Shown piece by piece: positions 8,029 through 61,049 of a stretch of DNA of 64,000 nucleotides. The notes below the pieces were generated by a model, which saw only the letters and a list, made by a program, of their open reading frames with translations, searched no databases and was not told the DNA's origin. The stretch covers positions 185,968 through 249,967 of the forward strand of contig CAZRNZ010000001.1 of the NCBI GenBank assembly GCA_964601615.1, written 5' to 3'. This DNA is from an uncultured Candidatus Saccharibacteria bacterium (GTDB lineage Bacteria; Patescibacteriota; Minisyncoccia; Phycocordibacterales; UBA918). The position numbers and the translations under genes were made by a program. Within the stretch, counting starts at the first letter, position 1. Each line of letters begins with the position of its first letter.

Positions 8029-10851
8029 TCATTGTGAAATAATAAAATTGAGAATTTTTCCTGGTACGTAAACCACTTTTTTAATTTCTACTCCCTCTAA
8101 ATACTTAGCAACACCCACTTGTTCTTTTGCCAATAAAATTGCTTCATCTTCTGTTGTATTAGAGACCAAAGTTATATCTCCCCTCACCTTCCCATTCACT
8201 TGAACACCGATTTTTATAACCTCATTCTCTAACAAACCTTCGTCAGCTGTTGGAAAATCTGTTGCATGAATAGTAAATTCATTTCCAAGACTACTCCAAA
8301 GCTCTTCTGTTAGGTGAGGGGCAAAAGGTGCGAGGATTTTTAAGAATTTTTCGTAGGAGTCTTTGGATAGACCTGTTTTCTCAACAGCATTTACATAAAT
8401 CATCATTGCACTAACAGCTGTATTGAACTTAAATCCTTCAATATCTTCTGTTACTTTTTGAATAGTCTTATGTAATAGTCTAGTAGATTCTTCTGGCTCA
8501 CTTTCTACAATATGCTCACTAAGGCCATTTACTCTTTCTATGAACCTTTGAGCACCTACCAAACCATTTGTGCTCCAGGCTACTGTATTTTCAAATGGTC
8601 CCATGAACATTTCGTAAATTCTCATGGAATCAGCGCCATTTTGCTTCACAATATCATCAGGATTAATTACATTCCCCCATCTTTTAGACATCTTTCTTCC
8701 ATCTTCTGCCAAAATGAAGCCCAAGAACTCAAGTCTAGTAAAAGGCTCAATATAATTTACAGCACCTATATCATAAAGGAATTTATGCCAAAATCGTGCG
8801 TAAATTAAGTGCCTAACAGCATGGTCTCCTCCCACATAAACATCAACTGGCGACCATTTTTTATCTTTGTCTTTATTAATCAGAACGTCATTGTTTTTTG
8901 GATCAACAAAGCGAAGATAATACCAAGAAGAACCTGCCCATTGCGGCATGGTATTTGTCTCACGCTTGGCTGGTTTAGCACATTTTGAACAATCGACATT
9001 TACCCAATCATCAATAGCCGCCAATGGTGATTCTCCTGTACCTGTCGGTTCGTAATTTTCTACTTCGGGCAAAGTAACCGGAAGTTGTTCAAAAGGAACT
9101 GGTACAACACCACAATCTGCACAATGAATCACTGGAATTGGTTCACCCCAATATCTTTGTCTAGAAAACACCCAATCACGAATTTTATAAGTATTAGTAA
9201 GTCTTCCACCTACTTTTTCAGTAATAGTTTTTTTAGCTTCTTCACTATTTAATCCATCAAATTCCCCAGAGTTTACCAAACTTCCGACACCAGTCCATGA
9301 ACAGCCATTTAGAAAATCACTCCATATATCAAAATGTGCTTCCCAAGTAATTTTTTTACCAACTTCTTCTTTATCAACCCATTCAACAGTATGTCTACCC
9401 TCATCTATTTCTGAAGAAACTTGAGTCAAACTCTTAAGCTTAATATGATAACCAAAACTTTTAGTCTTTTGGTTCTTATCTTTTGTATGACGATAAACCA
9501 GTGCCGTATGAATACTCACTGGACCACTCACAATTTCATAATCAGTAAAACCAGTCTCCTCAATCAACTCTCTCCCAATCGCAACTTCGTGTTTTTCACA
9601 ATCTGTGCCACCACCTACAAAATGTATATGATCGGGACTGCTTCCATCAGTCTCTCTTTGTAGTAAAAAGGTGCCGTCTGTTGGATGCTCAATAATCAAA
9701 TCTATCACATCACCACGATCCAATGTCTCTACACCTTCTTTAGTTTTTAAATCAAAGTGTCGAGCAATGACTTGCGTGATAGGTAAGTTAAATTTTTTAG
9801 CAAAAGCAGCATCACGTTCATCATGTGCTGGTACTGCCATAATTGCACCAGTACCGTAGTTTGCCAGTACATAATCAGCAATAAATACTGGAATTTCCTC
9901 ACCATTTGCTGGATTTACAGCAGTAACACCCTCAAGCTTTACACCCGTCTTTTCTTTATCGTTGTTTGTACGATCTATTTCACTCTTTAGTTTTGATTCT
10001 TTTATATACATCAAAACCTCATCTTTATTTTGAATCGGTAACTTATTCACCAGTTCATTCTCTGGTGCTAAAACTAAGTAAGTTACGCCAAACAAAGTAT
10101 CTGGACGAGTGGTAAAGACTGTCACTTTTTCACCATTAGATAAAGTAAAATCGACTTCCGCTCCTTCACTTTTACCAATCCAATTTCTTTGTGCTTCTTT
10201 AATATGTTCTGGCCAATCAAGTGTGTCCAAATCAGCTAACATACGGTCAGCATAATCAGTAATTTTTAAAACCCACTGACGCATTGGTTTTTTTTCTACA
10301 ATACTGCCACAACGCTCACAAGTACCATCACTTTCAAGATCTTCATTAGCTAATCCTGTCTGACATCCTGGACACCAATTAATTGGCTCGTAAGACTGAA
10401 AAGCTAAACCCTTTTCAAGCATTTTCAAGAAAGCCCATTGAGTCCATTTATAGAATTCAGGATCAGTTGTGTTTATTTCTTTGCTCCAGTCATAGTTAAA
10501 GCCAAGATGAGCTAATTGTTGTTTAAAGTTAGCAATATTTTTTTCCACTGCAGCGCGGGGGTGTACCTTGTTTTTAATCGCAAAGTTTTCTGCTGGTAGA
10601 CCAAAAGCATCCCAACCCATTGGATGAAGTACTTCAAAGCCAGACATTTTTTTGAAGCGAGAATAGATATCAGTAGCAATATAGCCTTTTGGATGCCCTA
10701 CATGAAGGCCTTCTCCAGAAGGATAAGGAAACATATCGAGTACATAAACTTTTTCTTTATCAGAATCTGTATTTGTCTGATAAATATTGGCCTCTTCCCA
10801 TTTTTTCTGCCATTTTTTCTCTATGGCGCTGTGATCAAACTTTTTATGCAT
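8029..10851 (-). CDS. leuS: leucyl-tRNA synthetase with embedded Nudix hydrolase domain
   Basis: Class I aaRS motifs (HVGH, editing TTRPDT, ...KMSKRWGNVI KMSKS-like). Start taken at MHKKFDHSAIEKKWQ (10851); the upstream Met at 10902 adds a non-conserved Cys-rich leader. An extra ~157-aa segment (~aa 381-540) contains a full Nudix box GGGTDCEKHEVAIGRELIEETGF. Confidence 0.9.
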   Translation of the reverse strand: MHKKFDHSAIEKKWQKKWEEANIYQTNTDSDKEKVYVLDMFPYPSGEGLHVGHPKGYIATDIYSRFKKMSGFEVLHPMGWDAFGLPAENFAIKNKVHPRAAVEKNIANFKQQLAHLGFNYDWSKEINTTDPEFYKWTQWAFLKMLEKGLAFQSYEPINWCPGCQTGLANEDLESDGTCERCGSIVEKKPMRQWVLKITDYADRMLADLDTLDWPEHIKEAQRNWIGKSEGAEVDFTLSNGEKVTVFTTRPDTLFGVTYLVLAPENELVNKLPIQNKDEVLMYIKESKLKSEIDRTNNDKEKTGVKLEGVTAVNPANGEEIPVFIADYVLANYGTGAIMAVPAHDERDAAFAKKFNLPITQVIARHFDLKTKEGVETLDRGDVIDLIIEHPTDGTFLLQRETDGSSPDHIHFVGGGTDCEKHEVAIGRELIEETGFTDYEIVSGPVSIHTALVYRHTKDKNQKTKSFGYHIKLKSLTQVSSEIDEGRHTVEWVDKEEVGKKITWEAHFDIWSDFLNGCSWTGVGSLVNSGEFDGLNSEEAKKTITEKVGGRLTNTYKIRDWVFSRQRYWGEPIPVIHCADCGVVPVPFEQLPVTLPEVENYEPTGTGESPLAAIDDWVNVDCSKCAKPAKRETNTMPQWAGSSWYYLRFVDPKNNDVLINKDKDKKWSPVDVYVGGDHAVRHLIYARFWHKFLYDIGAVNYIEPFTRLEFLGFILAEDGRKMSKRWGNVINPDDIVKQNGADSMRIYEMFMGPFENTVAWSTNGLVGAQRFIERVNGLSEHIVESEPEESTRLLHKTIQKVTEDIEGFKFNTAVSAMMIYVNAVEKTGLSKDSYEKFLKILAPFAPHLTEELWSSLGNEFTIHATDFPTADEGLLENEVIKIGVQVNGKVRGDITLVSNTTEDEAILLAKEQVGVAKYLEGVEIKKVVYVPGKILNFIISQ

Positions 10852-10932
10852 AACTTGAAATAAACAAAATGACTCCCGCTTTATACAGGAGTCATTATGC
10901 AATCTAAAACAAGATTGTTCAACCTTTCAGGA

Positions 10933-29483: not shown

Positions 29484-29489
29484 TTACTG

Positions 29490-29562
29490 TGGACCCGACA
29501 GGACTCGAACCCGCCACCTCCTCAGTGCAAGTGAGGCGCTCTACCAGATGAGCTACGGGCCC
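29490..29562 (-). tRNA. tRNA-Ala (anticodon UGC)
   Basis: Reverse complement folds as a canonical cloverleaf: acceptor GGGCCCG/CGGGUCC with a G3:U70 pair (Ala identity), anticodon loop CUUGCAC, T-loop GGUUCGAGUCC. CCA is not encoded. Confidence 0.9.
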
Positions 29563-60902: not shown

Positions 60903-60989
60903 GGAAACGTCGCATAGTGGCCTAGTGCGCTCGCTTGGAAAGCGAGTAGGGTGTCAAAACCCTCGAGAGTTCGAATCTCTCCGTTTCCG
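60903..60989 (+). tRNA. tRNA-Ser (anticodon GGA)
   Basis: Acceptor GGAAACG/CGUUUCC with G discriminator, anticodon stem CUCGC/GCGAG with loop UUGGAAA, long variable arm (GGGU...ACCC), T-arm GAGAG-UUCGAAU-CUCUC. Upstream TTGGTA-17-TATCAT promoter. Confidence 0.9.
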
Positions 60990-61049
60990 CTAAGATTAAG
61001 CGAAGCGAAAGCTTAGCGGAAACGAGCAAGCAAACTACTTTGCTTGCAT
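60972..61049 (+). repeat. inverted repeat of the tRNA-Ser 3' end (CGTTTCCGCTAAG...CTTAGCGGAAACG) plus a second hairpin GCAAGCAAA-ctac-TTTGCTTGC
   Basis: The tRNA acceptor/T-arm 3' strand is repeated in inverse 17 nt downstream. Confidence 0.55.

Follow-up and report, generated by a model that had tools for sequence, protein, structure and literature searches.

Enzymatic domains accreted by aminoacyl-tRNA synthetases are, for the most part, seen as a feature of eukaryotes. One described family with an accessory enzyme domain is NCBIfam NF040702, in which an isoleucyl-tRNA synthetase carries an N-acetyltransferase domain. The subject here is leuS, the gene for leucyl-tRNA synthetase (LeuRS), in a stretch of 64,000 nucleotides from an uncultured Candidatus Saccharibacteria bacterium (contig CAZRNZ010000001.1, positions 185,968–249,967; the whole stretch is termed the window). 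The encoded LeuRS likewise has an accessory enzyme domain. It differs from other synthetase-embedded enzymes in that the domain is a Nudix hydrolase, lies in the CP1 editing domain, and is exchanged between alleles.

The closest host proteins are the canonical bacterial LeuRS enzymes of known structure (1h3n/2byt, and 4aq7 of E. coli). They belong to the same family and have the same domain order, and the HIGH and KMSKS signatures, the T-rich motif and catalytic Asp of CP1, and the anticodon-binding and C-terminal domains all align. The window protein differs in having a 161-residue Nudix domain where these enzymes have a CP1 loop of ~14 residues, and in lacking the leucine-specific domain (Thermus residues ~580–638 are unmatched, the gap falling between residues 716 and 721). 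The closest solved structure to the inserted domain is 2azw, a MutT/Nudix protein of Enterococcus faecalis, which is 20–22% identical, stands alone and has no assigned function. The small Nudix hydrolases of nucleoside and dinucleoside polyphosphates are structural neighbours as well, but the insert has no equivalog-level match among them.

A preliminary description of the window, made from the sequence alone, knew of no earlier account of this architecture. A full-text literature search, with most subscription journals outside its coverage, agrees with this in that it found no paper on a LeuRS–Nudix architecture or on domain cassettes in synthetases of the Candidate Phyla Radiation (CPR). The architecture is not unique, since many public entries have it under the plain name leucine--tRNA ligase, or MutT where fragmented. 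Both parts are known families; the combination, the CP1 position and above all the modular exchange appear to be undescribed. The reading favoured here, with a probability of roughly 55%, is that of the housekeeping LeuRS of a CPR bacterium akin to Paceibacteria/Kaiserbacteria, with an independently folding accessory Nudix cassette, set in frame in a CP1 loop, that would hydrolyse nucleoside triphosphates (NTPs) or dinucleoside polyphosphates (NpnN) and leave leucylation unaffected.

A Nudix domain within the LeuRS editing domain

The features of leuS in window coordinates are the following.

8029–10851, minus strand: leuS, bacterial-type LeuRS, 940 amino acids plus stop codon (open reading frame, TIGR00396 and 1h3n match)
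10693–10704, minus strand: HIGH signature, HVGH, residues 50–53 (invariant in a 99-sequence alignment)
9763–10188, minus strand: first part of the CP1 editing domain, residues 222–363 (PF13603 stretch 222–366, equal to profile positions 1–144 of 185)
10096–10113, minus strand: T-rich motif TTRPDT, residues 247–252, within the first CP1 part
9820–9834, minus strand: VPAHD, within the first CP1 part; AHD is residues 342–344 and includes the conserved Asp
9280–9762, minus strand: inserted Nudix hydrolase cassette, residues 364–524 (161 residues)
9547–9615, minus strand: Nudix box GGGTDCEKHEVAIGRELIEETGF, residues 413–435, the sole Nudix box in the 64-kb window
9145–9279, minus strand: LeuRS resumes after the cassette, LVNSGEFDGL ... 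RDWVFSRQRYWG, residues 525–569, the right-hand conserved anchor (motifs and 1h3n alignment)
8680–8694, minus strand: KMSKS signature, KMSKR, residues 720–724 (motif read in the sequence)

The host protein scores 1006 bits against the bacterial LeuRS equivalog model TIGR00396 (leuS_bact; cut-off 548.4), 744 bits against the Thermus thermophilus enzyme (1h3n), and 211 bits against the PF13603 editing domain. It is encoded by the single leuS of the window. In the 99-sequence alignment T247, T248, R249, D251, T252, H343 and D344 are invariant in LeuRS proteins with and without the insert. The same is true of the HIGH and KMSKS signatures, so that LeuRS function looks intact in both forms. The right-hand anchor has near-invariant residues at L525, S528, F531, G533 and D559–G569.

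The cassette lies between the conserved segments LPITQVIA (residues 356–363) and LVNSGEFDGL (residues 525–534). The HMMER alignment to 1h3n places Thermus residues 365–380 opposite query residues 365–522, i.e. ~14 residues face ~156. Pfam NUDIX (PF00293) is matched with 32.5 bits by the insert alone and with 29.1 bits in the whole protein, the gathering score being 21.1. The box agrees with G-x5-E-x7-R-E-U-x-E-E-x-G-U at all specified positions (G413, E419, R427, E428, L429, E431, E432, G434 and F435). The preliminary description had recognized a complete Nudix domain between these two segments, far longer than the residues usually found there, and with its catalytic Glu residues present; the profile scores and the alignment bear this out. 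It had put the domain at the end of CP1, and this must be corrected. The PF13603 match is broken after profile position ~144 of 185, which places the cassette inside CP1, ~40 residues short of its end.

Structural modelling agrees with the profile evidence. The excised domain is modelled by AlphaFold2 with a mean predicted local distance difference test (pLDDT) score of 93.6 and a predicted template modelling (pTM) score of 0.88. The full LeuRS has a pLDDT of 86.3, with 92–97 in the insert region. The insert has the Nudix alpha/beta/alpha sandwich fold, and a profile built from 35 inserts matches 178 Nudix sequences of the PDB. The models support the folding of the insert as an independent Nudix domain. 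LeuRS strand 362–368 continues into the Nudix sheet with high confidence, and a basic hairpin, YRHTKDKNQKTK, comes directly after the Nudix helix and adjoins the box.

The same architecture is widespread among relatives. When LeuRS clusters were drawn from NCBI, JGI, ENA and Logan assemblies, PF00293 was found in 72 of the 120 best (61–75% identical, 923–1107 amino acids) and was lacking in the other 48 (781–831 amino acids). E428, E431 and E432 are present in 72/72 of these inserts, G414 in 71/72, W491 in 69/72, and R427 and E419 in 56/72 each, and the core glutamates are retained across subtypes that are otherwise only 20–30% identical. Judged from these residues, the Nudix module is probably catalytically active. 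A non-catalytic Nudix fold that serves LeuRS as a structural part, a regulator or a ligand sensor would have to accommodate the perfect box consensus of the window protein and glutamates kept at such low overall identity; a structural role is further at odds with near-identical LeuRS genes that dispense with the cassette (see below). Such a module is considered very unlikely.

A second survey concerned 80 species-representative genomes. The scan responded in part to the universal MAVPAHDE motif, so that more than half of the 80 loci have an ordinary LeuRS; these were used as a length control. The distance from PAHD to RDWxxSRQR is 67–114 amino acids in the ordinary LeuRS of many phyla and 216 in that of the window. 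In ~33 of the 80 genomes it is 212–382, and the box is intact in nearly all of these. The long-distance genomes are mostly labelled Patescibacteria; named relatives are Candidatus Kaiserbacteria, Paceibacteria and Parcubacteria. A few insert-bearing metagenome-assembled genomes carry other labels, which are unconfirmed. The insert-bearing LeuRS of three loci (L015, L031 and L032) reads through only under genetic code 25, and protein P0130 abounds in W at positions expected to be G. UGA-recoding lineages of the Gracilibacteria/Absconditabacteria type therefore have the architecture as well.

An artefact or a selfish element was also weighed, that is, a frameshift, a chimeric assembly, or an intein-like element removed after translation. 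The leuS of some relatives is in fact fragmented (L001, P0003 and P0004), and a patchy distribution of in-frame inserts at one conserved place in an essential gene is a property shared with inteins. Yet the reading frame is unbroken in the window, as it is in over 70 independent clusters of the four data sources, and NCBI has an identical protein from a 310-kb contig. The Pfam search gave no Hint or homing-endonuclease domain. The junctions, VIA/RHFD and GVGS/LVNS, have neither a Cys/Ser start nor a His-Asn-Cys/Ser/Thr end, and the LeuRS strand runs directly into the Nudix sheet of the model. Unlike inteins, the cassette is exchanged between alleles. A chimera would require two exact switches in each of seven independent pairs, which come from different samples. 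This explanation is thus essentially excluded.

As to the fragmented genes, the syntenic LeuRS of L001 (5227–8057, from a JGI contig of 993 kb) was called as five separate genes with the Nudix insert still present, and P0004, from another contig, has a local frameshift. These breaks are probably long-read indel errors and not pseudogenes.

Gain, loss and exchange of the cassette

Comparison of closely related leuS genes reveals that the cassette does not follow its host gene. Over all insert-bearing pairs the correlation between backbone identity and insert identity is r = 0.06. In a tree built from the backbone columns only, insert-bearing proteins, insert-less proteins and different Nudix subtypes are interleaved. 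Protein P0012 (942 amino acids, with insert) and P0051 (792 amino acids, without) have backbones that are 97.7% identical. P0018 and P0096 are 98.6% identical in the backbone, and their inserts are 27% identical.

The DNA sequences show the same. Near-identical leuS genes have flanks of 94–98% nucleotide identity around ~500 bp that are absent or non-homologous, and an alternative Nudix type in such genes can be only ~25% identical. In loci L082 and L083 both flanks, including the downstream sigma-like gene, are 94–97% identical and enclose 521 bp and 71 bp, respectively. Loci L084 and L085 are 90–100% identical per 20-codon block, except for codons ~361–538, where identity falls to 37–55%, the level of unrelated sequence, before returning to 97–100%. 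Five further pairs have their breakpoints just after AVPAHDERD..FAxKF and just before NSGEFDG. Protein P0009 has two different Nudix subtypes in tandem, the second within the LVNSGEFDG motif.

Insert-bearing and insert-less alleles share one syntenic slot, YchF-DUF5671-LeuRS-sigma-like-DUF8128-YceG-MnmA, and are therefore orthologues and not paralogues. Paralogy with gene conversion was rejected on the same ground, the alleles occupying this slot in different samples. Thus, in relatives of the window's organism, gain, loss or replacement of the cassette has occurred independently of the essential gene that hosts it. Recombination via the conserved flanking motifs is the likely means, to judge from the sequences at the breakpoints. 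Homologous recombination would swap the cassettes, with AVPAHDERD..FAxKF as the left arm and NSGEFDG as the right.

The similarity of L084 (1–3175) and L085 (1–578), 96–98% over leuS and the downstream gene, ends ~100 bp upstream of the leuS start, beyond which there is none; these genomes are therefore mosaic beyond the cassette.

The window's own insert has the GC content, third-position GC content (GC3) and codon usage of the LeuRS backbone. At its borders only short chance repeats were found in a search for boundary repeats and mobile-element signatures. Its divergence from its nearest relatives (~70%) is similar to that of the backbone (72–75%). On these grounds the insert looks long resident, and turnover is demonstrated only in relatives. 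Pairs compared at the DNA level have an insert identity of at most 60%, even the closest. At such divergence synonymous sites would be saturated, so no dN/dS is given for the insert; constraint on it is argued from catalytic residues that do not vary and from reading frames that have stayed open.

A fusion with a neighbouring gene was considered as the origin of the cassette. Only in one Saccharibacteria lineage with an insert-less LeuRS (L072, 6408–8039; also L049 and L073) is a free-standing Nudix gene, of 142 amino acids, found near leuS. It is part of a NusB-Nudix-RNase III cluster that begins ~1.4 kb downstream, with an opposite-strand gene between cluster and leuS. This was judged too weak. 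The leuS of L072 appears frameshifted.

Substrate class and the wider Nudix family

The structural neighbours of the insert include several enzyme classes. After 2azw come the diadenosine polyphosphatase Rv2985, the NTPase NudI, DIPP1 and the Ap6A hydrolase Ndx1; further neighbours are the Aquifex Ap4A hydrolase, MutT, NudG and RppH. The equivalog models give scores far below their cut-offs in NCBIfam (MutT PRK10776, 17.7 vs 148; TIGR00586, 14.1 vs 97.9; RppH NF001936, 18.4 vs 118). An NTP/NpnN substrate class is suggested by the structural neighbours, by the basic hairpin beside the box, and by co-occurrence in LeuRS with Ham1, a family of house-cleaning NTPases.

In the favoured reading the surface loop of CP1 would carry the Nudix pyrophosphohydrolase as an accessory and not an integral part of LeuRS. 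The module would be produced 1:1 with an essential, constitutively expressed enzyme and would hydrolyse non-canonical NTPs or Ap4A-like NpnN compounds, while leucylation and editing would proceed without it. Since the cassette is dispensable and interchangeable, and unrelated enzymes are embedded in the LeuRS of relatives, a function tightly tied to leucylation is argued against.

Nudix enzymes cleave diphosphate links, and the one phosphate of an aminoacyl-adenylate belongs to an acyl-phosphate link. The suggestion of the preliminary description that the domain might hydrolyse aminoacyl-adenylate or act in trans-editing is weakened by this chemistry, as well as by the dispensability of the cassette and by the unrelated enzymes found in LeuRS, one of them at the same site. 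Pre-transfer or trans-editing is thus unlikely. Hydrolysis of Ap4A-type compounds, the other activity proposed, is possible by analogy with the diadenosine polyphosphatases among the structural neighbours.

A narrower form of the earlier idea couples the module to LeuRS by its by-products. Here the Nudix domain would degrade Ap4A/Ap3A-type compounds, which LeuRS would make from Leu-AMP and ATP, and so would limit the build-up of alarmones or cap precursors in cells with few such hydrolases. A tyrosine ~16–18 residues after the box is said to mark the asymmetric Ap4A hydrolase subfamily. In the window insert Y453 is found 18 residues past F435, and the position is Y in 55/72 inserts and F in 17/72. 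The spacing shifts with indels, however, by up to 9 residues between subtypes, and the Ap4A/Ap6A hydrolases are among the neighbours of the insert but are not its best match. Moreover, near-identical LeuRS genes lack the cassette or have very different Nudix types, non-Nudix enzymes are embedded in relatives' LeuRS, and the aminoacyl-adenylate itself offers no diphosphate bond. LeuRS is not known to be a major producer of Ap4A. Coupling to by-products is therefore regarded as unlikely, though it ranks first among the rivals of the accessory-hydrolase reading.

Less probable still, with perhaps one chance in ten, is an enzyme of RNA or tRNA ends that is related to conflict. It would remove a diphosphate-containing block, such as the 3′-pyrophosphate added by RelA-SpoT homologue (RSH) toxins or a 5′ cap or triphosphate, and the turnover of the cassette would reflect an arms race. 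The CP1 domain of LeuRS accommodates A76 of the tRNA, and the Nudix domain is thus placed in the domain that binds the CCA end of tRNA-Leu. The RNA-acting enzymes BdRppH, RppH and the AvrM14 decapping effectors are among the structural neighbours, basic loops are next to the box, a nucleotidyltransferase occupies the same site in one relative (L037), and conflict loci typically turn over independently of the gene that hosts them. PMC9293644 cites the pyrophosphorylation of the tRNA CCA end by RSH toxins and the degradation of alarmones by Nudix enzymes. Against this, the RppH score stands at 18 bits where 118 are needed, the literature search found no report of a Nudix enzyme that removes a tRNA 3′-pyrophosphate, and the repair of tRNA-Leu alone would be an odd solution. 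As for conflict, searches of IMG/VR and INPHARED gave no viral homologues. Matches to defence and phage families show generic Nudix similarity only (PADLOC PDC-S07, 18 bits over the box region; PHROGs, 21 bits). The neighbourhood of leuS (YchF, DUF5671, sigma-like, YceG and MnmA) is housekeeping, with no defence island. A viral or defence origin of the cassette was rejected on the same evidence.

The wider family of the insert was surveyed exhaustively with HMMER. Among 1.84 billion representative proteins only 61 match the insert at E ≤ 1e-3, and the long ones are nearly all LeuRS. The rest are free-standing Nudix proteins of 160–200 amino acids that share an N-terminal extension, and one fusion. 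Free-standing members (P0149, P0155, P0160, P0164, P0167, P0169, P0172 and P0181) are 27–33% identical to the insert and share the strand ...R..V.VI.KHPT... and the box; they differ from the window Nudix in standing alone as genes, whereas the latter is embedded in LeuRS. The fusion, P0156 (1318 amino acids), has the order GNAT-Nudix-GNAT-peptidase M17 and is, apart from LeuRS, the sole multidomain protein with a Nudix domain of this kin. A repeat of the homologue search with the insert profile gave fragments only.

Several points weigh against the reading of an accessory hydrolase carried as an exchangeable cassette. Support for the substrate class comes from generic structural neighbours, of which the top match, 2azw, is itself uncharacterised. 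One insert subtype has Q for E419 and A for R427 of the box and, from these substitutions, may be inactive. Turnover is seen in relatives and not in the window's own lineage, and the window insert has no foreign signature in its composition, codon usage or borders. Finally, this Nudix family is almost confined to LeuRS, where Nudix is found at two or more sites, which hints at a LeuRS-specific advantage that goes beyond a pure passenger model.

Other enzymes in LeuRS and the surroundings of leuS

Nudix domains are not the only enzymes embedded in CPR LeuRS. In locus L037 (2334–5213, plus strand) residues 394–474 form an ANT(2″)-like nucleotidyltransferase (PF10706, 28.7 bits; gathering score 21), exactly at the site of the window's Nudix domain. 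A Ham1-like inosine triphosphatase (ITPase) is present before CP1 in the LeuRS of L017 (248–320) and L036 (264–338). A Ser_hydrolase/alpha-beta-hydrolase domain is found before CP1 in L029 (251–344), after the RDW..SRQR motif in L030 (593–754), downstream of the Nudix domain in L002 (724–819) and L017 (805–961), and also in the LeuRS P0159. Taken together, the enzymes embedded in CPR LeuRS represent at least four families and occupy no fewer than three sites.

Some LeuRS proteins have two or three Nudix domains (P0143, P0145, P0147, P0127, L013 and P0009), and in some a second Nudix site lies before CP1. In tandem arrays one copy often has a variant box, with Q for the first Glu and A for the Arg. 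Such a copy may be a pseudo-enzyme partner, as far as the box residues indicate.

Perhaps the permissive loops of leuS in CPR/Patescibacteria serve as in-frame landing pads for interchangeable enzyme cassettes (Nudix subtypes, single or in tandem, Ham1-like ITPase, serine hydrolase and ANT-like nucleotidyltransferase) that are moved from lineage to lineage by recombination on conserved flanks. This wider proposal is tentative, and we place it somewhat below even odds. If it is correct, it represents an undescribed way to carry and exchange accessory functions in a core translation gene of tiny genomes.

Of interest in any event is a bacterial LeuRS that hosts a complete second enzyme within its proofreading domain, in a relation between host and cassette that is dynamic. 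The favoured reading, if true, would offer a view of the way in which the very small genomes of CPR bacteria accommodate accessory functions of nucleotide metabolism, and a natural, evolution-validated permissive site for engineering LeuRS fusions. It would also mean modular exchange within a core gene, which confounds single-gene phylogenies and length-based annotation of leuS. The analysis also delimits a Nudix family to which 2azw, solved but uncharacterised, is homologous; the substrate of this family is worth determining.

The minus-strand reading frame is uninterrupted over 8029–10902 if counted from a TTG codon. The true start of leuS is most likely the ATG at 10851, since a terminator-like hairpin (10896–10868) lies between the two codons and homologues begin with MHKKF or MHRRF. 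The hairpin (10868–10896, minus strand; 12 pairs and a T-run) is situated between the DUF5671 gene and leuS, within the TTG-started frame. A promoter-like site at 10922–10894 overlaps it upstream of leuS. The gene order around leuS in the window is that of the syntenic slot given above.

RNA genes detected in the window are only tRNA-Ala (29489–29562, minus strand) and tRNA-Ser (60903–60990, plus strand), with no rRNA. Over the whole window (1–64000) there is a strand bias, with 34 of the 42 stop-to-stop open frames of at least 200 amino acids on the minus strand, and the GC content is 37.7%.

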